64,000 nt of DNA from Candidatus Altiarchaeota archaeon (GCA_028712125.1 JAQTQS010000002.1:1417-65416); one strand, 5' to 3'. Shown: positions 26,714 to 42,097, counted from the stretch's first letter. The notes: generated by a model from the letters alone, not told the origin. A program made the numbers and translations.

Positions 26714-27499
26714 ATGATATCAATAGTCATCCCAACGCTCAACGAGGAGGATAACATACGCAGGCTTATACCTGAGATACTCAGGGTGTTCTCCGGAAGC
26801 GATATCGAGATTGTCGTCGTTGACGGCAACAGCACGGACGGGACGCAGGATACGGTCAGCTCATTCTCCAAAAAGCACAATTTCATAAGGCTTGTGGTGC
26901 AAGCCGGCAAAGGCTTCGCAAACGCCGTTGCCGAGGGCATAGAAGCCGCCGAAGGCGACATAATCGTCACAATGGACGCGGAAAACCACATGCCGTCTGA
27001 AATCCCGAAACTCATCGACGCCCTCGTCGGCAACGGATGCGACGCGGTCATAGGCTCGCGGTTCGTCAAGGGGGCCGACGTCGATCTGGAGCAAAAGCGC
27101 CTACTCTCCTCGAAGATAGCGAACAAGCTCGCCAAGGTCGGCCTGAAGCTGAAGGTGAAGGACTGCTCGTCGGGCTTTCGCGCCTACCGCGCAAGGCCCG
27201 TAAAGCAGGCGGCCAAGAACCTCCGGACGAAGTACTTCTCAGTCCAGGTCGAGATTGTCGAGAGGCTGACGAAGGCCGGCTGCTGTCTGTGCGAAATCCC
27301 GGTCCACTACATCCGGCGTGACAGCGGGGACAGCAAGTTCCGGTTCAAGAGCGCGGTCAAGGATGCGACAACCCTCGTTCGGATAGCCGGCGACAATGAA
27401 ATCGAAAGCCTAAGGCGCACGACAAGGAAGCTCAAGAGCGCCGTCAGCGGGAGGCCGAGACGGCTGAGGCAGGCCATCAAGAAAATCAGGGGCCGTTAG
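26714..27499 (+). CDS. Family 2 glycosyltransferase (Dpm1 / dolichyl-phosphate sugar synthase-like)
   Basis: ISIVIPTLNEEDNI, DxD region IIVTMDAENH, GSRF motif, basic C-terminus. Confidence 0.85.
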   Translation: MISIVIPTLNEEDNIRRLIPEILRVFSGSDIEIVVVDGNSTDGTQDTVSSFSKKHNFIRLVVQAGKGFANAVAEGIEAAEGDIIVTMDAENHMPSEIPKLIDALVGNGCDAVIGSRFVKGADVDLEQKRLLSSKIANKLAKVGLKLKVKDCSSGFRAYRARPVKQAAKNLRTKYFSVQVEIVERLTKAGCCLCEIPVHYIRRDSGDSKFRFKSAVKDATTLVRIAGDNEIESLRRTTRKLKSAVSGRPRRLRQAIKKIRGR

Positions 27500-27515
27500 A
27501 GCATTTGTTTTCCGT

Positions 27516-28358
27516 TCATGTCATCCAGGATGCTGCCATCTGAGCAATAAAGCCGGCCGCTATCATGCCGACCAGCTTCATCCTGCTCCTGTGGACTACG
27601 ATATTCCCCTGGCCCATCCTTCCCGCAAGGTAAAGTATTGCGATGGCAGATGCAGCCGCAAGATAAGGCATATGGTTGGAAGCTCCGGCAGCGAGCGCGT
27701 ACAGGCATAAAGCCGTCAGCAGCGTGCGCTGAAGCCTTAATGAATTATTTTTCCCAAGCATCTGCACCGTCGTTTTCAGCTTGGCCTTTCTGTCGATGTC
27801 AAAATCCCTTAGCTCCTGGCTTGTCTGCGTGAACAGCGAGTTGATGACTGCGAAGCCCAGCAGGTACAGCGGGAATGCGGTAAAATTCCTCGTGTAGACG
27901 ACTGCCATGAATGCGGGCCCGGCGTCGATGATTGTCACGTGGTATGCCAGGTCGAGGATTGGCTTTGCCTTCGCGCGGACCGGCGGGCCGGAATATGTGA
28001 AGCCGAGGAAGGTTCGGGCTATCATGGCTGCAAAGAAAACGGCGTCTTTCGTCAGCAGGGCGCACAGCATGCCTGCGATGTATATCCCGACTGAGAGAGT
28101 GAACGACATTTTTTTGCCTATCGTGCCGTTGCTGATGGGATTGGTCTTACGCTTCCACTCTTCAAGCGCGTCGTCGTCAGAGTCGTAGACCCTGTTTATG
28201 GTTATGTCCCCTAAAATTCCAAGCATTATCGATGACAGCGCGAGGATTGCCCCCGCAGGATTCGCCTGCAATACCGCCGGCGCCAGCAGCATGAAGAATG
28301 CGGGTATGAGATACTGCTCGTAAAAGCCCTCGAAAAAGCCCCAGACCCCCCCTTTCAT
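27516..28358 (-). CDS. UbiA-family prenyltransferase (candidate DGGGP synthase)
   Basis: Polytopic. First Asp-rich motif INRVYDSDDDA...TNPISNG, second motif LRDFDIDRK. Overlaps the fni stop region. The family call is firm; substrate assignment rests on context only. Confidence 0.7.
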   Translation of the reverse strand: MKGGVWGFFEGFYEQYLIPAFFMLLAPAVLQANPAGAILALSSIMLGILGDITINRVYDSDDDALEEWKRKTNPISNGTIGKKMSFTLSVGIYIAGMLCALLTKDAVFFAAMIARTFLGFTYSGPPVRAKAKPILDLAYHVTIIDAGPAFMAVVYTRNFTAFPLYLLGFAVINSLFTQTSQELRDFDIDRKAKLKTTVQMLGKNNSLRLQRTLLTALCLYALAAGASNHMPYLAAASAIAILYLAGRMGQGNIVVHRSRMKLVGMIAAGFIAQMAASWMT

Positions 28359-29356
28359 CCGACTATCCTGCCGCGAAGACTTCGCACGTCAGCAGCTCCT
28401 GCAAGGAACATCGCAACCTTAAGCTCGAAAGTGAAACTGTCCAAAAATCCGCGCACGCCGTCCCTGCTGCCGGCAGACCATGCCTTGAGAACGGGAAGCG
28501 AGACGCCGACGACGTCCGCGCCCAGGGCGATGGCCTTTGCCGCGTCTATGCCGGTTCGTATCCCGCCCGAGCCTATCAGCGGCTTTTTCAGCCTAGCGAC
28601 TTCGCGTATCGCGTCGGCAGTCGGCACGCCGAAGCCCGCGAAATCCATTGCCGCACGCCTGCTCGCGCCCTCGCTCCTGTAGCCTTCAACCAGGCTCCAG
28701 CAGGTCCCGCCCACGCCCGAAACGTCAATGGCGTCGACCTTAAGCTTCCTCGCGGTCTCATAAGTGATTCCCTCCCCCACGCACTTGGCGATGACTGGAA
28801 TCTTTTGCTTTCGCATCTTCAAAGCCACTGAGTTGATTTTTCCCGCAAGGCCGGAAAAGTTCCTGTTCCCCTCAGGCTGGAGCGCCTCCTGCAATGGATT
28901 GATGTGGAGGGCCAGCGCGTCGGCGCCTATCATGTCGACCGCCTTCCTGCACTCATTGACTCCGTAGCCGTAGTTCAGCTGGACCGCGCCGAGGTTCGCA
29001 ATGAGCAGCGGAAGATCTGGCGCGGATTCCCTGACCTTGAACGTCTCCTCAAGCCTCGGGTTGTCTACGGCCGCCCGCTGGCTTCCGACGCCGAGGCCGA
29101 GCCCGTACTCCTGCGCGACTTCTGCGATGTCGCGGTTTATCCTGGTCGAATTGCCGGTCCCGCCGGTCATCGCGTTTATTATTATGGGATACTTGAGCTT
29201 CCTGCCGAGGAAGGATAATCTCGTGTCAATCCTGTCGAAGTCGATTTCCGGAAGGGCGCGGTATTCCAGCCGCACGTCAGAAAGGCCGGTGCTTCCGGCT
29301 TCGACCTTCTCCTGCGTGCATATGTCCAAGTGGTCCTGCTTGCGTTCGTCAATCAT
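28355..29356 (-). CDS. fni: Isopentenyl-diphosphate delta-isomerase, type 2 (FMN-dependent)
   Basis: Start taken at MIDERKQDHLDIC (complement of 29354-29356). The 44 upstream codons of the track ORF would overlap idsA. Motifs IINAMTGG, GVGSQR, GGIRTG. Confidence 0.92.
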   Translation of the reverse strand: MIDERKQDHLDICTQEKVEAGSTGLSDVRLEYRALPEIDFDRIDTRLSFLGRKLKYPIIINAMTGGTGNSTRINRDIAEVAQEYGLGLGVGSQRAAVDNPRLEETFKVRESAPDLPLLIANLGAVQLNYGYGVNECRKAVDMIGADALALHINPLQEALQPEGNRNFSGLAGKINSVALKMRKQKIPVIAKCVGEGITYETARKLKVDAIDVSGVGGTCWSLVEGYRSEGASRRAAMDFAGFGVPTADAIREVARLKKPLIGSGGIRTGIDAAKAIALGADVVGVSLPVLKAWSAGSRDGVRGFLDSFTFELKVAMFLAGAADVRSLRGRIVG

Positions 29357-29357
29357 C

Positions 29358-30371
29358 TTAAAACCTCCGCTGGAGCAGGAAGTCTGAAAGCAGCAGAAGC
29401 CTTTGCTTCGCCGGGGACTCCCTGAATATGCCCAGCTCCTTTTTCGCCTGCAGCGTATGCCTTGCAAGCTGCCTCTTAGAGTATTCAATCGACTTGGTCC
29501 TCCTGATTATCTCCATCGACGCGCCGAGGTCGCACGCCTCCCGCCGCTCAAGAATCGCAGAAAGCCTCTCCCTTTCGCTCTCCTTCGCATTCCGAATCGC
29601 GTGCAGTACCGGCAGGCTCTTCTTCCCCTCGCAGATGTCCGAGCCCACGGGCTTTCCCAATTCCTTCTCGTCGGCCGTAAGCCCGAGGATGTCGTCCTTA
29701 ATCTGGAACGCAAGGCCAAGGCACATGCCGAAGCGGCCCAGCGCGTCCACCTCTTTTTTGCTTCCTCCGCCGACGATTGCGCCCATTCTCAAAGAGGACT
29801 CGAGGAGCGCTCCCGTCTTCTTGCCTATCATCTTCAGGTACTCGCCCTCAAGGACGTCGCTCCTCTTGCTGTACAGCATGTCCAGTATCTGGCCTTCATG
29901 AAGCTCGGCGTTCGCCCTGATGAGCTCCTCCATGACGTCAAGAATCCTCCCCTCAGGCACTTTATGCTTCTTCAGGTCCATGAGCGCGCGAAACGCCGCA
30001 GAATAAAGAGTGTCGCCGACGATAATGCCCATCTCGTCGCCCCAGATGGCGTGCACCGTCGGCCTGCCCCTCCGCTCCATGTCATGGTCCATCATGTCGT
30101 CATGGACCAATGTGAACGTGTGCAACAGCTCGACAGAGGCCGCCGCCGGCAGCGCCTTATCCGGAGATCCGCCGACAATCTCGCATGCCAAAAGAAGCAG
30201 CGCGGGCCGAACCCTCTTACCGCCGGCCTTGATTGGATGCTCCATCATCTCCCTGATGGGCTGCTCCTCATCCTTGAAGTATTCAAGCAGGACCGGCTGC
30301 ATCATATCCGCCGTCTTCTTGATGTAATCCCTGGCGTCTTCCATGTTGAAAAATAGCGCACATCGGCGCAT
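29358..30371 (-). CDS. idsA: Geranylgeranyl diphosphate synthase (trans-polyprenyl synthase)
   Basis: First Asp-rich motif LVHDDMMD and second FQIKDDILG. An alternative start exists at Met10 (30344). Confidence 0.9.
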   Translation of the reverse strand: MRRCALFFNMEDARDYIKKTADMMQPVLLEYFKDEEQPIREMMEHPIKAGGKRVRPALLLLACEIVGGSPDKALPAAASVELLHTFTLVHDDMMDHDMERRGRPTVHAIWGDEMGIIVGDTLYSAAFRALMDLKKHKVPEGRILDVMEELIRANAELHEGQILDMLYSKRSDVLEGEYLKMIGKKTGALLESSLRMGAIVGGGSKKEVDALGRFGMCLGLAFQIKDDILGLTADEKELGKPVGSDICEGKKSLPVLHAIRNAKESERERLSAILERREACDLGASMEIIRRTKSIEYSKRQLARHTLQAKKELGIFRESPAKQRLLLLSDFLLQRRF

Positions 30372-30480
30372 AGCGCGCCAAAGGCAGGTAATCTATTGGT
30401 AAGCGTATTAAAATCTGCCGTCCGAAAGAAATGCGAAGGGCCGGGAATTATTTTTAAACAGGCCTTCCAATAAGAGTGGC

Positions 30481-30768
30481 ATGAACGGCCTCTTGGCGGC
30501 ATTGACAGTATTCATCGGCATGCTCGGCGGGAACAACGCCGACGACGGCGCAACAAGCCCGGCCGCAGTCGAGATTAACACGACAACCACCACAATGCCC
30601 GTTTCGCCGCACGTGATTTCCGAGAAGCTTAACACCTGCGACAAGATATCAGACACCGACGAAAGAAATCTCTGCTACGCCAAGGCCACGGGCGACCGGT
30701 TCTTCTGCGACCGGATAAAGGATTCCTCTCTAAAAACAACCTGCCGGCGAATCATCAAAACTAACTAA
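30481..30768 (+). CDS. Small secreted Cys-motif protein
   Basis: 95 aa. Hydrophobic N-terminus, Thr-rich linker, two copies of a C-D-x-I-x-D-x6-C motif (CDKISDTDERNLCY, CDRIKDSSLKTTC). Confidence 0.5.
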   Translation: MNGLLAALTVFIGMLGGNNADDGATSPAAVEINTTTTTMPVSPHVISEKLNTCDKISDTDERNLCYAKATGDRFFCDRIKDSSLKTTCRRIIKTN

Positions 30769-31429
30769 GGCTTCTGACATCATCAACGCTGACTTCCTTC
30801 ATGCTTGCCACAATTCTGTCCGGACGCTCCGCAAGCAGGCTCTCCCTCCCGTCATGGCCAGTTGTGACAGCAATCACGCGCATGCCAGCAGCCTTGCCGG
30901 CCCGGACGCCGTGCACCGAATCCTCAAAGACCACGCACTCCTCCGGCTTAACACCCAGACGTTTTGCAGTCTCAAGATAAATCTCAGGATCAGGCTTGCC
31001 ACGAGCAACCTCAGTCCCCATCGTAATCGCGTCCAAGAGGCCGTCAAACAAAGGCAATGCAAACACCAGCTCGCAAATCCGCTTCGAACATGACGTCGCA
31101 ATGCCGACCTTAAAGCCGGCCTTCTTCAGACTCTTCAATAGCTCCCCCGCGCCCGGCAGAAGCGAAATACCGCCACCGATATTCTCGGCAACAAGGTCCC
31201 TACGCTCCTCAACCGCCTTCTTCACAACAGCCTCATCAGGAGAAAGCCCGTGCCTTGAAAGAAAAAGCATCATAATATCCCGGCCGACCATCCCATAGCC
31301 CGCATCCAAATCAGCGCGGGTGAACTCAAGATTGAAATACTTGCGCGCAACAACCTGAAAAGCAGCAAGATGAATGTCAAACAAATCCACAAGCGTACCG
31401 TCAAAATCGAAAATAGCCGCCTTAATCAT
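30761..31429 (-). CDS. HAD-superfamily hydrolase (beta-phosphoglucomutase-like subfamily)
   Basis: Motif I AAIFDFDGTLVD, motif II IATS, motif III/IV K...VFEDSVHGVRAGKAAGM. Confidence 0.85.
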   Translation of the reverse strand: MIKAAIFDFDGTLVDLFDIHLAAFQVVARKYFNLEFTRADLDAGYGMVGRDIMMLFLSRHGLSPDEAVVKKAVEERRDLVAENIGGGISLLPGAGELLKSLKKAGFKVGIATSCSKRICELVFALPLFDGLLDAITMGTEVARGKPDPEIYLETAKRLGVKPEECVVFEDSVHGVRAGKAAGMRVIAVTTGHDGRESLLAERPDRIVASMKEVSVDDVRSLS

Positions 31430-31607
31430 CAGACGAAATATTGGAGCGATGAGTTATAAACTATGCCAGACGAGAAAGACATGTCGCTAAAAAATCCTCC
31501 TAGCCTAAGGTAAAAACGCAAGCATGCCGCTATTTTAAAAGCATGCTCGCATGAGTAAACAAGGAATCCAAGTGGATGCTAAGTCGTTGATGACTGGGGA
31601 GTATTAA

Positions 31608-31988
31608 ATGAGTGATGAAAACGCATGGAAGATCGTTCCAGCATTGGGTTTACTTGTTCTAACAATGATTTGGTTTTTTATTATGTATGCAATCCCTTCT
31701 TTTATCTCCGCACTGGTTTTCTATTTCTCCGATACTAAGACCTTCATGAAGAAAATTATTTCCTTCCTCCTCTCTGTGATGTCCTTCTTTGTATCGATTT
31801 TCATATTTGAACTAATATTTAATATTAAAAGAGCACCTTTTTCTGATATGTCCTACTCCCCACTATTTGGTACTTCCTTCTCACTAAGCGAGTGTTTAAT
31901 AACATTTTCGATTTTCATGTTTTTTGTATCCCTAATCCTTGTTGCACTAGTAAAAAAAATAAAAGAAAAATTAGGTGAGACTAAATGA
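31608..31988 (+). CDS. Hypothetical small membrane protein (AT-rich patch)
   Basis: 126 aa with about 4 hydrophobic helices rich in Phe/Ile/Ser. Codon usage is unlike the neighbours. Confidence 0.5.
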   Translation: MSDENAWKIVPALGLLVLTMIWFFIMYAIPSFISALVFYFSDTKTFMKKIISFLLSVMSFFVSIFIFELIFNIKRAPFSDMSYSPLFGTSFSLSECLITFSIFMFFVSLILVALVKKIKEKLGETK

Positions 31989-32293
31989 ATATGATTACTG
32001 ATTTTATCTATCCTTCAATCATATCTACCATACCCGTTCTTGTCTCAGTCTATGTTTTCTACATCTCCGTCACTAAAATCATAAGAAATAAGTTAATTTC
32101 ATATATAATATTTTTAACAGTGCTACTATCATCGATTTACTTCCTTGGAATCTTCTACCCGGGCAATAAAACAGATTTCTTTCCCCAGTTCTATTATGAT
32201 TATTTCCTAAAGTCATGCTCCATTTTCTTGGCTCTGGCGCTAATAGTTATGTTGGATCTTATGAATTACAAGTTAAAGTTCAGGAAAAAATGA
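31985..32293 (+). CDS. Hypothetical small membrane protein (AT-rich patch)
   Basis: 102 aa with about 3 hydrophobic helices. ATGA overlaps with both the upstream and the downstream gene. Confidence 0.5.
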   Translation: MNMITDFIYPSIISTIPVLVSVYVFYISVTKIIRNKLISYIIFLTVLLSSIYFLGIFYPGNKTDFFPQFYYDYFLKSCSIFLALALIVMLDLMNYKLKFRKK

Positions 32294-33255
32294 CCGAACA
32301 CCCACCAAAGTCTGAATCGTATAATACGCATTCAACCGCAGTCGCTTTTCCGGGTCTTCCCATTATTTTCGCCGAGGGTTTTGGGGAGAATAGGGTTTCC
32401 TTGCATGGGCATATCAGCCTGGCGCTTTCGACGGCTGACGGCTGTATGCGGTCTGTCACGGCTGTCGGGCAGGCCAGCCGAAATTCTTTTCTTGTTGACG
32501 GCCTGCGGATTGACCGCAAGCGTGGGAAGGGCATGCTGGCTATGCGGGATGCCATGGTCAATCTTGCCGGCAGTAAAATCAAGCTTGCGATATCCTCTGT
32601 GAATTCGGGCATCTTGACTGGCAGCAGCGATTCCGGGGCGGCGGCGTTGGCTGTGGCTTTGAACGGCTTTCTCGCTCTTGGGCTTTCAATTGACAGCCTG
32701 CATGAGTTGGCGCGTTATGGCAGCGAGACTGCCTACCGCAGTCTCTATGGCGGACTGAGCGAGTATTATTTCGAGAAGGGCGTTCCAAGGGCCAGGGTTC
32801 TTCTACCTGCCGGGAAATTGAAGGACATCGCCATCTATGCCGTGCCGTTCGACTATCCAAGGCATTCGGCTGACGAGCTGCATTCAGCGGTCGTCAGGCA
32901 TCCGGGCTATCGGAGGCGGATTGCGGTGGCGGAAAAGCGCATCAAGGATTTCAAGAAGGCCTCATCGAAGCGTGATTTCAATGCCTGCCTGCGTTTGATG
33001 GAAGACGACGCCCGGCAGGTGCACGGCCTGTTCGAGGATATGGGTTGCAGGGTGCGCAAGGAGGGCATGCTCGCATTATGCAAGAAGGTCGAGTCATGGC
33101 GTTCGGCCGGCTTGAGGTGCTATTGGAATGTTGCCGGCGGGAGCGTGGTCTATGTCTTCTCCCTAAGCAAGGATGCCAAAGAAGTAAGGAAGAATCTCAA
33201 GGGCTATAAGATTGTGGAATGCCGGCCTGCCGGGCCTGCCGCCGTTCTATCTTAA
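32290..33255 (+). CDS. Divergent mevalonate (di)phosphate decarboxylase-family (GHMP) protein
   Basis: Start at MTEHPPK (ATG 32290, overlapping the previous stop). GHMP motif-II-like ILTGSSDSGAAALAVALN and MVD-like ARYGSETAYRSLYGG (canonical: AR.GSGSACRS..GG). Confidence 0.68.
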   Translation: MTEHPPKSESYNTHSTAVAFPGLPIIFAEGFGENRVSLHGHISLALSTADGCMRSVTAVGQASRNSFLVDGLRIDRKRGKGMLAMRDAMVNLAGSKIKLAISSVNSGILTGSSDSGAAALAVALNGFLALGLSIDSLHELARYGSETAYRSLYGGLSEYYFEKGVPRARVLLPAGKLKDIAIYAVPFDYPRHSADELHSAVVRHPGYRRRIAVAEKRIKDFKKASSKRDFNACLRLMEDDARQVHGLFEDMGCRVRKEGMLALCKKVESWRSAGLRCYWNVAGGSVVYVFSLSKDAKEVRKNLKGYKIVECRPAGPAAVLS

Positions 33256-33281
33256 ATGCTCGGCGTCTTAAAGTAATCTAT

Positions 33282-35450
33282 ATGAAGCTTGTTAAGGCTG
33301 CTGTCTTTCTTGCCGGGTTTTCGGCGGTTGTCATGCAGCTTGCGGTCTTGCGGGAGTTTTTTGCGGTCTTCTATGGGAACGAGCTGGTGTTCGGGATTAT
33401 CCTTGGCAACTGGCTGCTGCTGACCGGGCTTGGCGGGTTTCTCGGCCGTTTTGCAGGAAGGTTGGGAAACAAGCTCTATTGGTTTATCCTGCTTCAGGCG
33501 GTTCTCGGTTTGATTGCGCCCGCGGTAATACTTTTTGCCGGCCTTTCCCGCAGCATTTTCTCGCTTCCGGGCGAGATGGCCAGCCTGCCGCTGGTGGCTG
33601 TTTCATCTTTTTTTGTTCTATTGCCGTTCTGCATGGTTTCAGGATTCCAGATTGTCCTTGCAGTCTCGCTTCAGTCCAAATCCGATGATAATATCGCGTC
33701 AGGGCTTGGCGGCGTCTATGCCATCGAGGGTTTCGGCAGCCTTGCAGGCGGGGTGTTATACACCTACTTCCTAATACCTGCGCTAAATTCGCTTGAGGCC
33801 GCGATGCTCGTCCTTGTCCTGAACATGGCGCTCTGCATCTTAATGTCGCTTTCATTGCTGCCGGCTTCAGTCAGGAAAATTAGCGCAGGCGCGATTGCCT
33901 TGCTTTTGATTGCAAGCCTTTTAGCCATCAATAACACCGGCCTTGCCGGCCTGTCGGACCGTATGCAGTATCCCGGCCAGGAAATCATTTTGCGCGAGGA
34001 TTCGCCCTACGGCCGGCTTTTTATAACCCGCACTGGAAGCCAGCTTAATTTCTATGAGAACGGCCTGCCGTTGTTCACCACAGACGACATAGGCCAAAGC
34101 GAGGAGGCCGTCCATTATGCAATGGTTCAGCATTCCAGTCCGCGGAAAGTGCTGGTGATTTCTGGCGGAGTGTCCGGCGTCCTTAATGAAATCCTAAAGT
34201 ACCCGTCAGTTGAAGAGATAGACTATGTGGAATTGGACCCGCTGTTGATAGACGCGGGCCGATTGTTCGTCAACGGCAGCGGCATCGAAAGTCCGAAGGT
34301 TCGCGTCCATTACGGGGACGGCCGGCGTTTCGTGCAGGATGCGTCAACTTCTGGAAGCGGTTATGACGTCATTTTGTTGAACCTTCCCGACCCTTCGACT
34401 GCGCAGCTCAGCCGTTTTTACACAGTCGAGTTCTTCAGGCAGGCAAGGAAGCTTTTGGGCGAAAGAGGCGTCATCTCGCTTTCGATAAGCGGTTCTGAGA
34501 ACTATATGAATACGGCCTCGCTCAGCCTGAACGCCTGCGTCTACCGGACGCTATTGGAATCATTCCGCAATGCGATAATCCTCCCCGGCGGCAGGAATTA
34601 TTACCTCGCATCCGACGGCAGCCTGACTTACGACATCGCAGGCCGGCTTTCAGGACTGGGCATCCAGACGTCATACGTAAACGGCTACTACCTTCCGGGC
34701 ATCCTGACTGGCGAGCGCATCAGATACGCTACCGATTCAGTCACCAGCCTCAAGGCTGAAGTCAGCCATGACTTCAAGCCCGCATCCTACTCCTACTACA
34801 TCGCTTACTGGAGCAGCCAGTACGGCATCAACCTGGATTACCTTGGACTGCTCTTACTTATAATGCTATTGTTATTTTTCCTATGGCTCAAGCCGGTTCC
34901 CGGCGCAGTGTTCTCCGCAGGCTTCGCCGGAACATCGCTGCAGCTTTCAATAATCCTCGCATTCCAGGCGCTCTACGGCTATGCCTACCGGCAGATAGGC
35001 GCAATAGTTGCCGCATTCATGCTCGGCCTAATGGCCGGCTCATTGTACTCGACCATGGCAATCCGCAGTAGAAAGCAGGGCGACCTGCGAATTCTCGTCG
35101 CAGGCATCTCAATCTACTCATTCATTATCGCCGCATGTCTCATGCTAGCGTCATACGCCGATTCAGCCGGATTGCCCGCATTCCTCCTGCCTGCCGTCTT
35201 CCTGCTGGCGAGCATGATTTCGGGCATGCTCACAGGCGCCCTATTCCCGATAGCCGGGAAGATAAGCCTTGCAAAAAATCCCGCCGCTGAATCCGCGATG
35301 GGCGCGCTATACGCCGCCGACATGGCCGGCGCCTTCTTCGGCTCGCTCCTAACCGGCGTTTTTCTGGCTCCAGTCTATGGTATAATCACAGCAACGGCCG
35401 CCGCCGGTTTGCTCGCGCTTGCGGGATGGATGAAACTTGCATCGAAATGA
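33282..35450 (+). CDS. Polytopic membrane protein with central spermidine-synthase-like (aminopropyl/methyltransferase fold) domain
   Basis: Start at MKLVKAAVFLAGF (ATG 33282). About 7 N-terminal and about 5 C-terminal TM helices flank VLVISGGVSGVLNEILKY...VELDP...YDVILLNLPDPS. Confidence 0.8.
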   Translation: MKLVKAAVFLAGFSAVVMQLAVLREFFAVFYGNELVFGIILGNWLLLTGLGGFLGRFAGRLGNKLYWFILLQAVLGLIAPAVILFAGLSRSIFSLPGEMASLPLVAVSSFFVLLPFCMVSGFQIVLAVSLQSKSDDNIASGLGGVYAIEGFGSLAGGVLYTYFLIPALNSLEAAMLVLVLNMALCILMSLSLLPASVRKISAGAIALLLIASLLAINNTGLAGLSDRMQYPGQEIILREDSPYGRLFITRTGSQLNFYENGLPLFTTDDIGQSEEAVHYAMVQHSSPRKVLVISGGVSGVLNEILKYPSVEEIDYVELDPLLIDAGRLFVNGSGIESPKVRVHYGDGRRFVQDASTSGSGYDVILLNLPDPSTAQLSRFYTVEFFRQARKLLGERGVISLSISGSENYMNTASLSLNACVYRTLLESFRNAIILPGGRNYYLASDGSLTYDIAGRLSGLGIQTSYVNGYYLPGILTGERIRYATDSVTSLKAEVSHDFKPASYSYYIAYWSSQYGINLDYLGLLLLIMLLLFFLWLKPVPGAVFSAGFAGTSLQLSIILAFQALYGYAYRQIGAIVAAFMLGLMAGSLYSTMAIRSRKQGDLRILVAGISIYSFIIAACLMLASYADSAGLPAFLLPAVFLLASMISGMLTGALFPIAGKISLAKNPAAESAMGALYAADMAGAFFGSLLTGVFLAPVYGIITATAAAGLLALAGWMKLASK

Positions 35451-35698
35451 AAACTGGCAACCTAATGACCAAAATAAACAGGTGGACGGGCTGGCTCTCG
35501 CTGGCCTACATGATAGTTTTCATCGCAACCGGCTTTGCCATGGTCGGCATGTGGGATTTTGACAAAATCATAAGCGTCAGGCGGGCCGGCATGCTGCACT
35601 CGAGCCCGTACATGATATACCCGATGCTCGTCGTCGTGATAGTGCACTCCCTGACTTGCATCCAGAGGTGGCTTTCGGGATGGACAAAAAGAAGGTAA
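35447..35698 (+). CDS. Small 2-TM membrane protein with intramembrane or adjacent His residues
   Basis: 83 aa from MKTGNLMTK. ATGA overlap with the upstream stop (35447-35450). Hydrophobic segments WLSLAYMIVFIATGFAMVGMW and MIYPMLVVVIVHSL. Confidence 0.5.
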   Translation: MKTGNLMTKINRWTGWLSLAYMIVFIATGFAMVGMWDFDKIISVRRAGMLHSSPYMIYPMLVVVIVHSLTCIQRWLSGWTKRR

Positions 35699-36846
35699 GC
35701 CGGCGGGAGTTCCTGGGAAAGCTCGCGCTCGCGGGCGCGGGCGTTGCGGCAGGCGGCTATCTCGCAAGCCGCATACTCTCAGGATATGATATCGCAAGCT
35801 CTACCTTCAACAACTCAGCGCCGAAGGAGCTATGGAAGTGGAGCAAGGAGGCCTACCACTATCTAAAGCTAGGGGAGAACGTGAAATGCCAGGTCTGCCC
35901 CCACCAGTGCCTCCTCAAAGAGGGCGACCGTAGTATCTGCCGCAACAAGGTCAATCTGGGCGGCGTCCTGTACACTCTGGCCTACGGCAACCCCTGCTCG
36001 ATGCACCTCGACCCGATAGAGAAAAAGCCGCTCTATCACTTCCTGCCGAAAAGCCAGGCGTACTCCATAGCAACAACCGGCTGCAACTTCCGCTGCCTGA
36101 ACTGCCAGAACTACCAGATATCCCAGGCCCAGCCCGAAGACACTACTAATGCGGATTTGATGCCGGACAAGGTTGTTGACGCGGCTTTAAGTTCTGGCTC
36201 TTCGTCCATCGCCTACACCTACTCCGAGCCCGTAGCCTTCTACGAGTACATGTACGACACGGCGCAGGAAGCCCGCAGGCGGGGCGTGCGAAACGTAATG
36301 GTGACGAACGGCTACATCAATACAGTCCCCTTGCGTGAGCTTGCCAAGTACTTGGACGGCGTCCAGCTCGACCTCAAGGGCTTCAGGGAAGAGTCGTACA
36401 ACAAGCTGAACGGCGGCACCCTCCAGCCGCCATTGGACTCGCTGAAGACACTGAAAGAAGAGGGCGTATGGTTTGAAGCCAGCAACCTCGTCGTCCCGAC
36501 ATGGTCTGACGACCTTGACGCGATAAGGGAGATGTCACAGTGGCTTGTGAAAAACATAGGCACTGACCACCCGCTCCACTTCCTCCGCTTCCAGCCGCAA
36601 TACAAACTAGCCCACCTGCCGCCGACTCCCGCAGAAACCCTTGAAAAAGCCCGCAAGATAGCAATGGACGCAGGCCTGAAGTACGTGTACATCGGCAACA
36701 TCCCGAACCACGAGGCCGAGAACACTATATGCCCGAAGTGCGGGAAGCTTCTAATAGAGCGCAAGGGTTTTACTGTCGTGCAAAGCAATGTTTCCGAAGG
36801 CGCCTGCAAATACTGCGGGGAGACGATAGCCGGAGTATGGAAGTAA
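35680..36846 (+). CDS. AmmeMemoRadiSam-type radical SAM enzyme (PflA-like) with N-terminal twin-arginine signal
   Basis: MDKKKVSRREFLGKLALAGAGVAAGGYLASR (S-R-R-x-F-L-K consensus plus h-region). N-terminal Cys motif CQVCPHQCLLKEGDRSIC, DPIEKKPLYHFLP, radical SAM CNFRCLNCQNY, C-terminal CPKCG...CKYCG. Confidence 0.85.
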   Translation: MDKKKVSRREFLGKLALAGAGVAAGGYLASRILSGYDIASSTFNNSAPKELWKWSKEAYHYLKLGENVKCQVCPHQCLLKEGDRSICRNKVNLGGVLYTLAYGNPCSMHLDPIEKKPLYHFLPKSQAYSIATTGCNFRCLNCQNYQISQAQPEDTTNADLMPDKVVDAALSSGSSSIAYTYSEPVAFYEYMYDTAQEARRRGVRNVMVTNGYINTVPLRELAKYLDGVQLDLKGFREESYNKLNGGTLQPPLDSLKTLKEEGVWFEASNLVVPTWSDDLDAIREMSQWLVKNIGTDHPLHFLRFQPQYKLAHLPPTPAETLEKARKIAMDAGLKYVYIGNIPNHEAENTICPKCGKLLIERKGFTVVQSNVSEGACKYCGETIAGVWK

Positions 36847-36852
36847 ATTCCC

Positions 36853-37557
36853 TCAGGATGTAATCCTCGCAATCAGGACGCCGGCCTCATATAGCAACAC
36901 CATCGGCAATGCGACAAGAATCTGAGATACAAAAGTCGGGTCCGGCGTGATTAAAGCCGCAAAGATGAAGATAACGACGATAACATGCTTGCGCTTTGAG
37001 GAAAGCGTTTGCCGGTCGACGACGCCCGCTTTTGCGAGCGCGTAAACGACAAGCGGAAGCTGGAACGAAAGCCCGGTGGTCGCGACGATGAAGAGTATGA
37101 AGGAAACAGTCTCATTAAGGCTCAGCATCGGCGTCGCGGCCGGATAAGCCTCGTTTAGCATGAACGAGAGCGTCACCGGCAGCAGGACCTTGTAGGCGAA
37201 GACGGCCCCCAAGAGAAATAGGAATGCGGAAGGCAGGAGGGCGCCCGCAATCATGCTGCTCTCGCGCCTCGTCAAAGCCGGGCGCACGAAGGCCCACAAC
37301 TCATAGGCCAACAGCGGCAGGCTGAAGAGGAATCCCAACAGGATGGAAATCTTAACGTTGACGCTCACGGCCTCCAATGGCGCGATAATCACCAGCTGCT
37401 GGCCGCTCAGCAGGTCCGTCTTAATCCTCGCTAGCAGGCTTGATGCGAGCGGGTAGGAGAACACGGATGCGAGCAGCAAAAATATTATCGAGACGAAGAT
37501 GCGCCCCCTCAATTCCTCAAGGTGGTCATAGATGCTCTTGACAGCGGCGTCAGTCAT
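36853..37557 (-). CDS. tatC: Twin-arginine translocase subunit TatC
   Basis: HLEELRGRIFVSIIFLLLASVFSYPLA start typical of TatC; six TM helices; 234 aa. Confidence 0.9.
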   Translation of the reverse strand: MTDAAVKSIYDHLEELRGRIFVSIIFLLLASVFSYPLASSLLARIKTDLLSGQQLVIIAPLEAVSVNVKISILLGFLFSLPLLAYELWAFVRPALTRRESSMIAGALLPSAFLFLLGAVFAYKVLLPVTLSFMLNEAYPAATPMLSLNETVSFILFIVATTGLSFQLPLVVYALAKAGVVDRQTLSSKRKHVIVVIFIFAALITPDPTFVSQILVALPMVLLYEAGVLIARITS

Positions 37558-37566
37558 GGCCCGTTT

Positions 37567-37725
37567 CTATTTCTTCAATACTTCCTTGTCCTCTTCTTTT
37601 ACTGCCTTCCTGAATTCCTTTACTGACAGACCCATGGCGCGGGCGAGTTCCGGAAGCTTCCTTGCGCCGAAGAGCAAGAGCACCAAGGCCAGTATGATAA
37701 TCAGTTCCTGCGTTCCGACTGCCAT
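37567..37725 (-). CDS. tatA: Twin-arginine translocase subunit TatA/E (52 aa, below the ORF-track cutoff)
   Basis: Hand translation gives MAVGTQELIIILALVLLLFGARKLPELARAMGLSVKEFRKAVKEEDKEVLKK. TM helix, then FG-x-RKLPEL and an amphipathic helix, the TatA hallmark. Lies 10 nt upstream of tatC. Confidence 0.82.
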   Translation of the reverse strand: MAVGTQELIIILALVLLLFGARKLPELARAMGLSVKEFRKAVKEEDKEVLKK

Positions 37726-37852
37726 CTCAAGACCACCTCATTAAAGTTGTTGGAACAGTCGTAAATAAATACGCGCCTGCGCTTCGCACTTATCGATTGA
37801 CGTCAGTGACATAACACCTGTTTTTTTTATTCAGACAGATAAATATCCTAAT

Positions 37853-38614
37853 ATGGGCGGAAATGTTGTCTTTGAAATCCCAATCCACCTGAATCCCAGC
37901 GCATTCACTCACAAGACGAGCACCCTGGTTTTCACAGAGACCGGCTTTTATGTGAAAGAGGCGCCGGAGCTGGCTGCGGATTACATTAATATAATCTCTG
38001 CGGAAAAGAAGAGCTGGTGGGTGTTCAACTCACTGATACGTTTAAAATTCAATACCCCGGTCGGCCCGCGGGATTTCAGGTTTACGGCCGCCCGCGGTAT
38101 TTCTGCCGATGAGTTGGGAAACAAGAAGGTGTACTCTTACATGCTTGGTGCAATCGGGAAGCGGGCGGTGAAAGCCGACGCAGCAGACGCTTCCCTCAAG
38201 AGCTATGCGAGTTCGTCAAAGATGGGCGGGTTGTTCAACTTCCGCAAGATTGAAACAAGGGAAGACGCCCTGACAATGATAAAAGACGTATCTAAAGGCT
38301 TTATTGTTGTTGCAGTGATACTGGCGGCAATAGGCTTTTTTATCGACCTTTACATGCTAATCGATGCATTCCTGTTTGGGTTTTTTGGAGTCGTTTTATT
38401 CTACACCAAAAGCAGGCTATCCGCCATGGCGTTATTCCTGCTCTCCGTGTTCGCGTTTTTCACGACGGTATACAACTTTATGCACCCGGCTCTAGGCGGC
38501 GGGAAAAACATATTCCTCGCAGTCATCCTCCTATGGGGGGGTTTAAGGGCCGTACAAGCCGCAAACAGGCTTCATTCGCTAAATATAACCTCTTCTCCCA
38601 GTCGTCCTATCTAG
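37853..38614 (+). CDS. Hypothetical membrane protein (soluble N-domain plus 3-4 C-terminal TM helices)
   Basis: 253-aa ORF; no catalytic motif recognised. Confidence 0.55.
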   Translation: MGGNVVFEIPIHLNPSAFTHKTSTLVFTETGFYVKEAPELAADYINIISAEKKSWWVFNSLIRLKFNTPVGPRDFRFTAARGISADELGNKKVYSYMLGAIGKRAVKADAADASLKSYASSSKMGGLFNFRKIETREDALTMIKDVSKGFIVVAVILAAIGFFIDLYMLIDAFLFGFFGVVLFYTKSRLSAMALFLLSVFAFFTTVYNFMHPALGGGKNIFLAVILLWGGLRAVQAANRLHSLNITSSPSRPI

Positions 38615-38640
38615 AATCATCCGCCGCGCAAGAGCGGCCA

Positions 38641-39435
38641 TCACCATATCGTAGTGCCTAACTTCTGGTCGCCTAGGAGCGCCGCCTTCAGCTCCCCCGG
38701 TACGAGCCCGCTTACCACCTGCGACTTGATGCCCCTGTCTGCGACATCCAGAAGCTCATTGACCTTGCGCTTCATGCCCCCTGTGACGTCGACGCCCCGC
38801 GAGCCGCTGATTGCAAGCTTGCCCACGTTCTGGGCGGTAATCTCCTTGACAAGCAGCGCCTCCGGATTGTTGGTCGGGTCGCCGTCGTAGATGCCTGAGA
38901 CGTCGGTCGCGATGACTATGCGCGAAGCGTTCAATTTAACGGCAAGATACGCCACAAGATGGTCGCCGGAAAGTATGTTTATCCCCGTCTTGATGTCCAG
39001 CAGGACGTCGCCGTAGGAGACCGGCATGAAATCAAAGGCGAGCAAGTCCCCCACCGCCTCGGCCGAGAAGTAGACAAGCTTCCGGTCTTCCATGATGCCG
39101 CCCGCGCTAGGCTGAAAGGCAATAGCATTCAAACCCGCCCTGCAAAGCGCATCCACAACCCTGGCATTCAAGGACTCCATGCTCGCATGAGTCTCGCACG
39201 CGCCCTTGATGCTCTCCGGCCCCTTCATGCCCGCCGTAAGATTGTACTTCTCGGCATACATGTGGCCGAAGGGCCCCGCGCCGTGCACTACTACCATCCG
39301 GCATTTCAGCTTTGCTTTCGCTTCCGCAATCTCCCGTGAAAGCCGGTCAAGGTTCCCGGATTCGACCTCAAGAAGGCTCTCGCTCTTCTTGGTTATGACG
39401 CTGCCGCCAATCTTAAGAATAATCAGCTTTTCCAT
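38641..39435 (-). CDS. ipk: Isopentenyl phosphate kinase (amino-acid-kinase fold)
   Basis: LIILKIGGSVITKK, VVVHGAGPFGH, ATDVSGIYDGDP, VDVTGGM. Confidence 0.85.
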   Translation of the reverse strand: MEKLIILKIGGSVITKKSESLLEVESGNLDRLSREIAEAKAKLKCRMVVVHGAGPFGHMYAEKYNLTAGMKGPESIKGACETHASMESLNARVVDALCRAGLNAIAFQPSAGGIMEDRKLVYFSAEAVGDLLAFDFMPVSYGDVLLDIKTGINILSGDHLVAYLAVKLNASRIVIATDVSGIYDGDPTNNPEALLVKEITAQNVGKLAISGSRGVDVTGGMKRKVNELLDVADRGIKSQVVSGLVPGELKAALLGDQKLGTTIW

Positions 39436-39725
39436 TTTTACCTGTACGCTACGGAATTATTCTGGTTTTCGTGTTGATGTTTACCAATGGGCGATTCATT
39501 TATAAATAGACCGCTACTCCCTTCTCATTATGTCAAATAAGCTGGCTATTGTCTGCATAAAGTGTCCGTCTATCAGCAAACTAAAAAGCTATTAGCGCCA
39601 AGAATTATCTCATGGGGGATGAACAGGGCGAGCGTACGATAAAAACCGATGGATGTCACATGAAACCGCATGATTGTCAAACTTTTTCCGAATCGTTATA
39701 TCCGCCCCTTCCTAAGCTATAATGC

Positions 39726-41291
39726 ATGCCATCCAACGGGCACGCAATCTATCATATCCGCATGGCTCCCATCATCCGGTCTCTGGACGCTGCGTTTGAT
39801 TCAAAATACGCCATAGCAATCGTGCTTGCGGCATGCGCCCTTCTGATAACATTCACCAGCCAGGTTGTTTTCATGGGCCTCTCCAACAGCGGGGACGAGG
39901 GCGCCTACATCATATCCGCCCGTTTGTTCTCGGCCGGGAGGCTGAGCATCCCATCCCCGCACCTCAGCTATTACTACAACTACTATCATACGATAAACGA
40001 CGGCAAGTTCTACGGCAAATACCCTCCGGGCTGGCCTTTCTTCCTGTCCATCGGCATGCTGGCGGGCATGCCCATGCTTGTAAATCTGTTCTTCGCCCTG
40101 TCGACAATCTACATTGCATACCTAATCGGCAAAGAGCAATTCTCCCGCAGGGTCGGCATAACAACCGCGCTACTGATGGCGACCAGCCCCTATGTGATAT
40201 TCAACTCTGCCAGCTATTTCTCCCATACGAGCATGCTCTTCTTCACAACGCTTTTCATGCTCATCTACCTCCGGAACATGGACGCCGAGAAGACCCGCAA
40301 TTACCTGTGGATGGGATTGGCCCTCGGCATAGCCTTCAACATCAGGCCGCTGGACGCCGTATTAATCGGCGCCTGCTTCATCTCGCACTACCTGATACGG
40401 CTGAAAGGCCGGCTTTCCCGGCGCGAGACCGCGTTAAACGGCGTGTTTTCGCATGCAAAGGCGTTCGCCTTCGGGTTCGGCTTCCTTATACTGCTATTCC
40501 TCCTCTACAATCACCTCCAGACAGGGAATGCGTTCCTTACGCCCTTCCAGAAGTACGACGCCAAAGACAAGCTTTCACTCTACCTCGAAAGGCCGAAGCT
40601 GAATCTCATGGAGGATATCGCAGGCTCGCTCATAAAGAGGACCTACGTCTGGGTTCCATTCTCCTTGTTTTCATTCATCGCATTCGCGCGAAGCGCCGCC
40701 AGCCAGAGGGGCCGGCTGGTCCTGCTGTCATCAACCATACTGATACTGCTCATCGTATACTCGATGTACTGGGCCGACGGCTTCTACCAGTACGGCGCCC
40801 GCTACTTGTACGCATCCGCATCCGCCCTTTTCATACTTATTGCGGCCGGCATGGACCGGGTGCGCGAAATCAACGGACTGTTCTACAGCTCTCTTGCGCT
40901 TGCGCTCGTCTTCAACATGGCGTTCATCGCTTGCGCGTCGCCTCATTACAACGAGCTCTTTGGCGAGAAAAGGGAGGTTTATGACGAAGTTGTCGAAAGG
41001 AATATCTCGAACGCGCTTGTTTTCATATACGGTTGGAATTACAACTTCATGCCGATGCCAGTAAGCGAAATCTCCAGTAACAACCTTTTCTTCAACGACT
41101 CCGTGATATACATAAAGATGCCGGACAACTCCAGCATGAGGCTGACATCCGACTACCCCTCGCGGCATTACTTCATCTGGAAATGCAAATACTCGCATAA
41201 GTCGATAGGCCTCCTGGACCTGACCATCACGTCCGGCGATAACTGCACTCTCACATCTTTTAAAAACGAGGCAACAAGCGCTAAATTATGA
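39726..41291 (+). CDS. GT-C fold membrane glycosyltransferase (ArnT/PMT, GT39/83-like)
   Basis: Polytopic 521-aa ORF with an extracytoplasmic-loop acidic motif (NSGDEGAYIISARLF) and YGKYPPGWPF. Start codon uncertain. Confidence 0.65.
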   Translation: MPSNGHAIYHIRMAPIIRSLDAAFDSKYAIAIVLAACALLITFTSQVVFMGLSNSGDEGAYIISARLFSAGRLSIPSPHLSYYYNYYHTINDGKFYGKYPPGWPFFLSIGMLAGMPMLVNLFFALSTIYIAYLIGKEQFSRRVGITTALLMATSPYVIFNSASYFSHTSMLFFTTLFMLIYLRNMDAEKTRNYLWMGLALGIAFNIRPLDAVLIGACFISHYLIRLKGRLSRRETALNGVFSHAKAFAFGFGFLILLFLLYNHLQTGNAFLTPFQKYDAKDKLSLYLERPKLNLMEDIAGSLIKRTYVWVPFSLFSFIAFARSAASQRGRLVLLSSTILILLIVYSMYWADGFYQYGARYLYASASALFILIAAGMDRVREINGLFYSSLALALVFNMAFIACASPHYNELFGEKREVYDEVVERNISNALVFIYGWNYNFMPMPVSEISSNNLFFNDSVIYIKMPDNSSMRLTSDYPSRHYFIWKCKYSHKSIGLLDLTITSGDNCTLTSFKNEATSAKL

Positions 41292-42034
41292 AAGGAACAG
41301 ACGTATCCGTGGTAATCCCCACTCTAAATGAAGAGGCGTCCATAGGAAGAGTCATAGCTGAAATCCGGGAGGCGCTTGACAAAAGAAAGACCGGATACGA
41401 AATAATCGTCGTCGACAACAACTCAACCGACCGCACGTCCGAAATCGCGCAAAAATCTGGCGCTAGGCTAATTTTCGAGGGCAACATGGGCTACGGCCTC
41501 GCATACAAGGCCGGGCTTGCCGCCGCCCAAGGAGACGTCATCGTAACGGGCGACGCCGACTGCACCTACCCCTTCGACGAGATATCCCGGTTCGTAGATG
41601 CCGCATCGGCAGACAGAAACGCATTCATCATCGCCAACCGGTTCGTCCGGCTTATGCCCGACGGTATACGGCCGTTAAACATCCTTGGAAACCACATGCT
41701 CACATTCGGAATGAGGCTCATCTACGGCATCAAAATCAGCGATTCACAGTCAGGCATGTGGGCATTCAACAGGGAATTCCTCGACAAGATAAACCTCAGC
41801 CAGATGAGCGACAAAATGCCATTCAGCCAGGAGATGAAGCTTTGCGCGGCATTTAGCGGCCTGAGGATTGTCGAACTACCTATACGCTACCGGAAAAGGT
41901 CCGGGGTCGCTAAGCTTTCCCCGCTAAGGGACGGCTGGGACAATCTTAAAAGCCTTATAACGTTCAGGAGCACTCTTTCCAGAGTGTTGAAAAAGCATGA
42001 AAACAAGAATATTACAAATATCGAACCCAGATAA
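41288..42034 (+). CDS. Family 2 glycosyltransferase (Dpm1-like)
   Basis: VSVVIPTLNEEASI, VIVTGDADCTYP. ATGA overlap with the GT-C gene. Confidence 0.85.
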   Translation: MKGTDVSVVIPTLNEEASIGRVIAEIREALDKRKTGYEIIVVDNNSTDRTSEIAQKSGARLIFEGNMGYGLAYKAGLAAAQGDVIVTGDADCTYPFDEISRFVDAASADRNAFIIANRFVRLMPDGIRPLNILGNHMLTFGMRLIYGIKISDSQSGMWAFNREFLDKINLSQMSDKMPFSQEMKLCAAFSGLRIVELPIRYRKRSGVAKLSPLRDGWDNLKSLITFRSTLSRVLKKHENKNITNIEPR

Positions 42035-42097
42035 CGGTCAAAGAGTTTTTTTTAACAGTCGCCTAATCTATTAAACCCCGATAAAAACTGGCCAAAA

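Follow-up and report, generated by a model that had tools for sequence, protein, structure and literature searches.

Introduction

Radical S-adenosylmethionine (SAM) enzymes make up one of the largest enzyme superfamilies and, to our knowledge, all characterised members work in the cytoplasm, needing SAM and a strong reductant. In the AmmeMemoRadiSam system, the radical SAM enzyme AmrS is joined by AMMECR1 (AmrA) and Memo (AmrB), both of which have human disease-linked homologs. Here we analysed a stretch of 64,000 nucleotides from Candidatus Altiarchaeota archaeon (GCA_028712125.1 JAQTQS010000002.1:1417-65416), hereafter the window, which encodes a radical SAM enzyme of the AmmeMemoRadiSam type (rSAM) that begins with a twin-arginine translocation (Tat)-type signal and lies between two upstream genes for membrane proteins and a convergent tatC-tatA pair. 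The gene contexts of Memo, AMMECR1 and this type of radical SAM enzyme were reportedly treated by Burroughs et al. in 2019 (J Biol Chem).

The window's rSAM resembles the AmmeMemoRadiSam enzyme in matching it over its full length and in carrying the same three Cys motifs, and its relatives are likewise encoded with Memo and AMMECR1, there as a fusion protein. Unlike the described enzyme, it starts with a Tat signal and tether of ~55 residues that are not covered by the TIGR04337 model, the Memo-AMMECR1 fusion of its relatives carries an export signal of its own, and the locus has extra, obligate-looking partners: a 14-transmembrane (TM) protein with a spermidine-synthase-like domain (SpdSynTM), a small 2-TM protein, and TatAC. 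In further contrast with the three-gene system, the 64 kb searched contain no gene for Memo or AMMECR1. The export signal and the additional partners are what set it apart from the described system.

Among known Tat substrates, Rieske proteins, whose Tat anchor is uncleaved, and NapG/HybA-type ferredoxins similarly combine a twin-arginine (RR) signal with an Fe-S passenger that receives its cofactor before export; unlike theirs, the passenger here would be a radical SAM enzyme, whose activity depends on a consumable cofactor and on an electron of very low potential. We know of no radical SAM enzyme that is experimentally exported. Our full-text literature searches likewise turned up no account of this gene cluster or of any radical SAM enzyme exported by Tat, and an earlier computational mention may still exist.

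We report that the rSAM is likely, on sequence evidence, to be a real Tat substrate, forming the catalytic part of a conserved module that is bound to the membrane and works on its extracytoplasmic face. That radical SAM catalysis itself proceeds at the outer face of the cytoplasmic membrane is a more tentative proposal, to which we give somewhat less than an even chance.

The rSAM is a full-length AmmeMemoRadiSam-type enzyme

The rSAM open reading frame (ORF) begins at an ATG that follows a Shine-Dalgarno-like AGGTGG by ~9-14 nucleotides (Table 1). It scored 349.6 bits against TIGR04337 (AmmeMemoSam_rS, cutoff 220), with residues 64-387 aligning to model positions 8-333 of 349, and 56.8 bits against PF04055. 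The ORF is a complete, full-length TIGR04337 radical SAM enzyme, and an earlier interpretation of this DNA made from the sequence alone (the sequence-only reading) had correctly placed such a gene at these coordinates.

A search of 5.8 billion protein sequences returned at least ~8,000 rSAM relatives. The 120 closest homologs were 57-76% identical to the window's enzyme, nearly all aligned over essentially their full length, and their source names included DPANN groups, Altiarchaeota, Methanofastidiosia and Theionarchaea. For the comparison of gene neighbourhoods, one genome per species was kept, giving 80 rSAM loci that came mostly from Bacteroidales, Desulfobacterales, Ignavibacteriota, Verrucomicrobiota, Omnitrophota and Planctomycetota. 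In an alignment of 32 rSAM sequences (A1), every cysteine of the N-terminal motif (C70, C73, C77, C87), of the radical SAM cluster motif and of the C-terminal segment was invariant except C354, the fourth C-terminal position, which was variable in some homologs. These three conserved motifs imply that the protein would bind Fe-S clusters.

The AlphaFold model of the rSAM (predicted local distance difference test score, pLDDT, 79) contained a globular core from about residue 55 that resembles pyruvate formate-lyase activating enzyme (PFL-AE); its cluster-binding loops were uncertain, as expected for a model built without cofactors. The nearest solved structures were PFL-AE, followed by NifB and lipoyl synthase, and a search for a solved structure of the rSAM family turned up only PFL-AE and generic radical SAM folds. 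PFL-AE and the other glycyl-radical activases were also the closest characterised sequences (3c8f/3cb8, E = 1.8e-14 in the profile search; Foldseek template modelling score (TM-score), 0.68-0.72). We nevertheless rejected a glycyl-radical activase assignment, as the protein scored 59.5 bits against a threshold of 231.75 for TIGR02493 and 31.1 bits against 174.35 for TIGR02494. Moreover, no glycyl-radical enzyme gene was seen among the rSAM neighbours in the window. Known glycyl-radical activases work in the cytoplasm and lack a signal peptide.

The N-terminus of the rSAM is a conserved Tat-type signal

The rSAM begins with MDKKKVSRREFLGKLALAGAGVAAGGYLASRILS, which comprises a basic n-region, the motif S7-R8-R9-E-F11-L12-G-K14, a Gly/Ala-rich helix and then R31. 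The sequence-only reading had described this motif as an exact S-R-R-x-F-L-K, which overstates the match, since the sequence reads S-R-R-E-F-L-G-K, with the consensus Lys one position further on. Residues 6-29 nonetheless passed the curated TIGR01409 (TAT_signal_seq) model with 21.0 bits (cutoff 16.7), and each sequence feature of a Tat substrate was present, namely the motif, a weakly hydrophobic Gly/Ala h-region, a basic c-region and a translocase. When the family was surveyed, [ST]-R-R-x-F-[IL]-K followed by a Gly/Ala-rich hydrophobic stretch was found in 112/120 of the nearest homologs; four of the remaining eight carried RK or RM, and the other four had shorter called N-termini that lacked the signal region. 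R8 and F11 were invariant in the 32-sequence alignment, and a conserved W-K-W-S-x-E-A-Y-H-Y segment lay between the signal and the catalytic core. Given this conservation, the RR signal is no chance motif.

We also considered whether the apparent signal could be an artefact in which the RR motif is a chance match or the start codon is mis-called, such that the true protein begins downstream. The sequence-only reading had held that no alternative start could remove the signal and keep the core. Strictly, this is incorrect, because a GTG at codon 68 (35881), the only other in-frame start before the catalytic core, lies two residues before the first Cys and would preserve all of the Cys motifs. 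However, initiation at this GTG would delete the conserved W52/W54/S55/E57/Y59/Y61 segment, and the conservation of the peptide upstream of it in 112/120 homologs indicates that this region is translated. Together with the AGGTGG before the ATG and the match to the curated Tat model, these observations effectively refute a mis-called start, and we regard it as very improbable.

Across the 80 loci, the rSAM N-termini fell into RR (38), KR (17), RK (2), hydrophobic without RR (6) and absent (16) classes, with a few of these class calls adjusted on inspection; the KR form corresponds to the Bacteroidales "SKREFIK". In a neighbour-joining tree, the signal-bearing rSAMs clustered together, the signal-less form made up its own Bacteroidales clade, and the archaeal rSAMs, including that of the window, formed a single RR clade. 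A scan of the window for RR signals with a relaxed hydrophobicity threshold identified the rSAM as the only convincing candidate, and a stricter threshold gave none.

The hydrophobicity of the signal was informative as to its type. The best 12-residue stretch in the window's h-region had a Kyte-Doolittle (KD) value of 1.6 (LALAGAGVAAGG) and was followed by R31. Over the rSAM family, h-regions had a mean KD of 1.77 and were 60% G/A/S/T, compared to 2.82 and 19% for the signals of Memo-AMMECR1 (Mann-Whitney p = 6e-20). The contrast between the two sets is the one known from textbook Tat and Sec signals: the rSAM, as the Fe-S protein, has the Tat-like signal of a folded protein, and its partner, which has no Fe-S motifs, has a Sec/lipoprotein-type signal.

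Cleavage of the signal appears unlikely in Archaea. The archaeal rSAM signals had no conserved AxA cleavage site, and AxA-like sites were present in several bacterial versions. In the AlphaFold model a helix spans residues 8-33, the linker at residues 31-44 is of low confidence (pLDDT <50), and across the family a variable tether follows the signal and reaches about residue 50. Since the archaeal clade has no conserved AxA, the 26-residue helix is long enough to span the membrane and the linker is variable, we infer that the signal is an uncleaved signal-anchor.

tatC and tatA are linked to the rSAM in Archaea

The genes on the far side of the rSAM both pass curated cutoffs as tatC and tatA (Table 1), and the tatC stop is 6 nucleotides from the rSAM stop with tatA just beyond, as had been read from the sequence earlier. 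tatC was present within the fetched locus in 8/8 distinct archaeal loci with enough flanking sequence (the window, L001, L030, L081, L082, L084, L086 and L087), L085 being left out of this count because its sequence ends too early. These loci differ in gene order and orientation, and tatA adjoins tatC in the window and in 6/7 of the archaeal relatives. In several DPANN archaea with small genomes tatAC is part of the cluster, which hints that enzyme and translocase are closely linked in function. Just past tatA lies a 253-amino-acid ORF (37853-38614) with a hydrophobic C-terminal half, for which we found no Pfam or NCBIfam match and no counterpart in the related loci.

A 14-TM spermidine-synthase-like protein accompanies signal-bearing rSAMs

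The sequence-only reading was right about the rSAM and its tat neighbours and missed the gene for SpdSynTM upstream of them (Table 1), which can also start at 33219. The longest reading of this ORF overlaps the 3' end of a GHMP-fold gene (32215-33255). SpdSynTM scored 85.4 bits against PF01564 and 41.2 bits against NF037959 (MFS_SpdSyn, cutoff 40), and its homologs are named fused MFS/spermidine synthase by NCBI. Because a simple hydropathy prediction missed two of its helices, we used the AlphaFold model (pLDDT 89.6; predicted template modelling score, pTM, 0.89), which shows seven TM helices, a spermidine synthase fold at ~residues 230-500 and seven further TM helices. The Foldseek matches listed for the soluble part were all SpeE aminopropyltransferases (TM-score 0.70-0.77).

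Like SpeE and the membrane-fused MFS/spermidine synthases (NF037959, PRK03612), SpdSynTM keeps the complete SpeE fold, and its family keeps the ribose-binding Glu and the adenine-binding Asp. Unlike in SpeE, the domain has a 7-TM half on either side and a predicted location outside the cell, and the Asp of GGGDG that selects decarboxylated SAM (dcSAM) is replaced across the whole family, where the motif reads SGGVSG. In addition, the catalytic Asp (D-L-P-D-P in the family, D-x-x-D-P) is Asn in the window's protein (residue 367, 34380-34382). The score against the spermidine synthase equivalog model was 187.7 bits compared to a cutoff of 472. The only other Asn at the catalytic position in the alignment was in the SpdSynTM of L086 (P0123), and the window and L086 are the two clusters without Memo-AMMECR1.

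The orientation of the domain was predicted from the charges of the loops. Over 32 SpdSynTM homologs, the summed K+R was 18.2 for loops on the side of the N- and C-termini compared to 3.0 for those on the side of the domain, and the positive-inside rule therefore predicts an outward-facing spermidine-synthase-like domain. Three homologs reach ~1,000 amino acids and have a Fer4_5 (NapH-type) Fe-S domain at the C-terminus, identified by scan in P0223 and P0236 and taken from the precomputed Pfam entry for P0240; these fusions agree with a cytoplasmic C-terminus.

By clustering of neighbouring ORFs, SpdSynTM, with a length of 700-810 amino acids, was co-located with the rSAM in 45/80 loci. It was found beside 38/55 of the RR or KR rSAMs compared to 2/16 of those without a signal (Fisher p = 9e-5), making it the most consistent partner of signal-bearing rSAMs. 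One of the two signal-less exceptions, L027, has a cytoplasmic-type pair right beside a complete signal-bearing set. In this Bacteroidales locus (1928-9116), the cytoplasmic-type pair is a 335-amino-acid rSAM and a 296-amino-acid Memo, both without a signal, and the exported set is a Memo-AMMECR1 with a signal, SpdSynTM and a 372-amino-acid rSAM with a KR signal.

A small 2-TM protein with two invariant histidines precedes the rSAM

Between SpdSynTM and the rSAM lies a gene for an 83-amino-acid protein, which may alternatively start at 35465 (77 amino acids). The gene overlaps both of its neighbours, with its ATG and the SpdSynTM stop sharing an ATGA and its last 19 nucleotides reaching into the start of the rSAM, an arrangement also seen in L081. 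The sequence-only reading had offered this protein, speculatively, as an electron or anchoring partner of the enzyme, and its conservation bears out the partnership. Searching exhaustively with the single sequence gave 16 relatives, including three tandem-duplicated 4-TM forms, and a profile search extended the family to 45 members, several labelled as cytochrome b subunits of SDH/FRD by the Joint Genome Institute. G29, G34, H51 and H67 were invariant in the alignment of these proteins (A3), the two His being 16 residues apart. A survey of rSAM neighbours with a hidden Markov model (HMM) put the small protein immediately before the rSAM in 11 further distinct loci, of which four are archaeal and seven come from Verrucomicrobiota or Planctomycetota, and locus look-up placed two further members directly upstream of a putative radical SAM gene. 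In one such cluster (L088), the order is Memo-AMMECR1, SpdSynTM, small protein and putative rSAM, whose 396 amino acids match the length of the exported class.

The small protein resembles the heme-b anchors of SDH/FRD (PF01127) and cytochrome b561 (PF01292) in its TM helices and two invariant His. Three relatives (P0266, P0270 and P0277) passed PF01127 (Sdh_cyt) with 27.5-28.9 bits (gathering cutoff 25.8), and sub-threshold matches of relatives to PF01292 recurred. Unlike the SDH/FRD anchors it has only two TM helices and would need to dimerise; the tandem 4-TM forms noted above do exist.

Other proteins for electron transfer across the membrane occur in loci that lack the small protein. L086 lacks it and has a NapH-like gene next to tatA, NosR-like proteins with DsbD_2, FMN_bind and Fer4_5 domains lie upstream of the rSAM in L075-L077, and DsbD_2 proteins are present in L038, L041 and L056. 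NosR/NapH-type conduits thus sit in the cluster in place of the small protein in other loci; no NapH-, NosR- or DsbD-like gene was found in the window. Separately, we observed DUF362 proteins immediately upstream of the rSAM in three bacterial loci, L072 (6818-7888, by scan), L073 (6895-7899) and L078 (6860-7837), and the L073 copy begins with an RR motif (MRRRAFFKSL...).

Most related clusters include an exported Memo-AMMECR1

The absence of AMMECR1 and Memo near the rSAM, noted in the sequence-only reading, held for the whole window, where neither tblastn nor a Memo-AMMECR1 HMM run on the six-frame translation detected them (best E = 2), yet it is an exception among relatives. Clustering of neighbouring ORFs found a Memo-AMMECR1 fusion of ~505 amino acids in 46 of the surveyed loci, and the usual bacterial order is Memo-AMMECR1, SpdSynTM, rSAM. 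Among Archaea, L081 reads SpdSynTM, small protein, rSAM, Metallophos-like gene, Memo-AMMECR1, tatC, tatA, and L082 reads small protein, rSAM, Memo-AMMECR1, SpdSynTM, tatA, tatC; L084 and L087 have similar clusters with tatC and tatA. Like the window, L086 (SpdSynTM, rSAM, tatC, tatA, NapH-like gene) has no Memo-AMMECR1. The gene links between rSAM, tatAC, SpdSynTM and the small protein therefore recur across Archaea and several bacterial phyla. Genes for possible accessory phosphoesterases or hydrolases were also seen: the Metallophos-like gene inside L081 (2864-3817), the window having a Metallophos gene (42098-43120) ~5 kb downstream, and, in L084, a metallo-beta-lactamase-like gene (6279-6974) between SpdSynTM and rSAM.

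The Memo-AMMECR1 proteins encoded beside signal-bearing rSAMs start with a hydrophobic signal or a lipobox, including all six archaeal fusions examined, while those beside most signal-less rSAMs start directly at the conserved D-R-x-P-A-V-A-G-x-F-Y-P. A clade of five loci (L038, L041, L056, L076 and L077; Omnitrophota, Chlamydiae and UBP3) has very hydrophobic rSAM N-termini, mostly without RR, some with a lipobox-like LTAC; the rSAMs of this clade are the ones accompanied by the DsbD_2 or NosR-like proteins described above.

The catalytic domain is predicted to face outward

The sequence-only reading had offered two alternatives, namely that the signal acts as an "N-in/C-in anchor" or that SAM and reductant are supplied outside the cytoplasm. 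As worded the first fails, since with one helix and its N-terminus inside, the C-terminal domain must end up outside. We nevertheless weighed the broader idea that the RR helix only ties the enzyme to the membrane, with the catalytic domain in the cytoplasm acting on a substrate handed over by SpdSynTM and the neighbouring tatAC serving other substrates or only insertion of the anchor. Such an arrangement would make the SAM and reductant problem disappear, as SAM and reduced ferredoxin or flavodoxin are available in the cytoplasm, and it fits both the relatives whose hydrophobic, non-RR N-termini resemble plain anchors and the loci in which Memo-AMMECR1 alone carries a signal. However, the rSAM has six K/R before the helix compared to one after it, which predicts N-in and hence C-out. 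The invariant RR and F residues fit the Tat consensus and not simply any membrane anchor, and the weakly hydrophobic, Gly/Ala-rich h-region would make a poor anchor for Sec or YidC. Since, in addition, tatC is linked in all eight of the distinct archaeal loci, Memo-AMMECR1 has export signals of its own and the spermidine-synthase-like domain is predicted outside, the evidence favours true extracytoplasmic operation of the rSAM, and we consider cytoplasmic anchoring unlikely.

The window neighbourhood

Around the module lie genes for isoprenoid lipids and glycosylation, which together form an island (window 26714-44400; Table 1). None of these genes recurs beside the system in 88 other loci, and for that reason we set aside an isoprenoid link of the module as a weak, window-specific hint only. 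An ORF at 39833-40984 overlaps the PMT_2 ORF (39726-41291) on the same strand in another frame and may be spurious. A tRNA scan of the window found none.

Table 1. Features of the rSAM locus and of its surroundings, in window coordinates
Feature	Coordinates	Strand	Evidence or remark
rSAM enzyme, AmmeMemoRadiSam type (TIGR04337), 388 amino acids	35680..36846	+	TIGR04337 and PF04055 scores
Tat-type signal / signal-anchor, rSAM residues 1-33	35680..35778	+	TIGR01409, motif conservation, AlphaFold helix
N-terminal Cys motif C70-x2-C73-x3-C77-x9-C87, presumed auxiliary Fe-S site	35887..35940	+	Within TIGR04337 match
Radical SAM cluster motif C135-x3-C139-x2-C142 (CNFRCLNC)	36082..36105	+	Inside PF04055; invariant in A1
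C-terminal Cys-rich segment C351 ... C376-x2-C379	36730..36816	+	C351, C376, C379 invariant in A1
Small 2-TM protein, 83 amino acids, two invariant His; candidate heme-b electron conduit/anchor	35447..35698	+	Alignment A3, HMM
SpdSynTM, 14-TM protein with central spermidine-synthase-like domain ("fused MFS/spermidine synthase")	33282..35450	+	PF01564, NF037959, AlphaFold
tatC, convergent with rSAM	36853..37557	-	TIGR00945 188.5 bits; PF00902 198.3 bits
tatA, 52 amino acids	37567..37725	-	TIGR01411 66.3 bits; PF02416 65.0 bits
GT2	26714-27499		
UbiA prenyltransferase	27516-28358	-	
FMN_dh/IDI2-like	28355-29488	-	
Polyprenyl synthetase	29358-30371	-	
HAD	30761-31429	-	
Mevalonate-3-kinase/MVD-like, GHMP fold	32215-33255		137 bits vs equivalog cutoff 440
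Isopentenyl phosphate kinase	38641-39435	-	
PMT_2 glycosyltransferase	39726-41291		
GT2	41288-42034		
Metallophos	42098-43120		
GHMP kinase	43477-44400		

Discussion

The gene links and signal types described above lead us to propose a working order of events. By analogy with established Tat biology, the Fe-S clusters of the rSAM would be inserted in the cytoplasm and the folded holo-enzyme would then be exported by the adjacent TatAC. The signal helix would stay in the membrane as an N-in anchor, with a tether of ~20 residues holding the catalytic domain at the outer surface. There, as operon structure and the positive-inside analysis suggest, the rSAM may work with the outward-facing spermidine-synthase-like domain, and the MFS-like part of SpdSynTM may deliver the substrate, an adenosyl-sulfonium cofactor, or both. 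The small protein would dimerise, bind heme b through its two invariant His and pass electrons across the membrane to the rSAM, a role suggested by its homology to heme-b anchors and by its substitution by NapH-, NosR- and DsbD-like modules. Roles in supplying electrons and SAM or substrate would suit these parts because they accompany only the exported class, as expected for problems that arise only outside the cytoplasm. The enzyme probably acts on a molecule of the cell envelope or on one linked to a lipid. The module of this genome would run without the Memo-AMMECR1 component.

In its complete form, this proposal has radical SAM catalysis performed on the outer side of the cytoplasmic membrane by a widespread machine of four parts, three of which are in the window: a Tat-exported rSAM; an outward-facing SpdSynTM bringing SAM or another sulfonium, substrate, or both; a mini cytochrome b or a NapH/NosR-like protein; and, usually, an exported Memo-AMMECR1. 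Several points weigh against it and account for our caution. A radical SAM enzyme on the outside would need both SAM and a low-potential electron, and the potentials of heme b and of quinol-level carriers normally lie far above those at which a radical SAM cluster can be reduced. We know of no SAM exporter, and any such activity of the module's proteins would be putative. The window's small protein differs from the SDH/FRD anchors in that no heme-protein model reaches threshold with it, and both the loss of the dcSAM-selecting Asp and the catalytic Asn in SpdSynTM count against the ligand that the spermidine-synthase-like domain is proposed to handle. Further, a signal-bearing Memo-AMMECR1 is paired with a signal-less rSAM in L050, L058, L070 and L080, so the two proteins need not share a compartment. 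Finally, it is difficult to see how an Fe-S enzyme would be exported with the hydrophobic, non-RR N-termini of L038, L056, L076 and L077.

Alternatively, the rSAM might be exported without cleaving SAM outside, either completing its radical chemistry on itself or on a bound partner in the cytoplasm beforehand or serving outside only as an Fe-S electron-transfer or structural subunit. In a variant of this idea, SAM would be exported bound to the enzyme and be regenerated in use, like the cofactor of lysine 2,3-aminomutase, such that no external SAM would be needed. It is established that Tat exports folded, cofactor-bound proteins, and both the lack of any SAM exporter known to us and the several putative redox parts of the module are in keeping with this explanation. 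On the other hand, the rSAM core, including CX3CX2C, remains ~50% identical to that of the signal-less paralogs, arguing for the same catalysis; its nearest characterised relatives, PFL-AE and other activases, consume SAM as a co-substrate; and the spermidine-synthase-like partner, being specific to the exported class, points to an adenosyl-sulfonium ligand that is handled on the outside. We therefore judge export without external SAM cleavage to be improbable, even more so than cytoplasmic anchoring, and retain catalysis on the outer face as our tentative proposal.

Overall, the sequence-only reading stands as regards a Tat-signal rSAM beside tatAC with a small membrane partner; it needs amending in its wording of the anchor, in its omission of SpdSynTM, and in that the absence of Memo-AMMECR1 in the window turns out to be atypical.

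At the level of annotation, the names "pyruvate formate lyase activating enzyme" and "spermidine synthase" given to genes in these loci are almost certainly wrong. The signal-bearing clade spans DPANN archaea, Altiarchaeota, Methanofastidiosia, Bacteroidales, Desulfobacterales, Verrucomicrobiota, Planctomycetota and Omnitrophota. If its export is true, the assumption that radical SAM enzymes work only in the cytoplasm would be overturned by a conserved and phylogenetically broad clade, and two new processes would be implied, namely the delivery of SAM, or of a substitute, outside the cell and the delivery of low-potential electrons across the membrane. The enigmatic triad of Memo, AMMECR1 and radical SAM enzyme gains a testable address, the cell envelope, together with new partner proteins. 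Radical SAM chemistry outside the cytoplasm would, if true, be a much larger departure than a variant of a known system.

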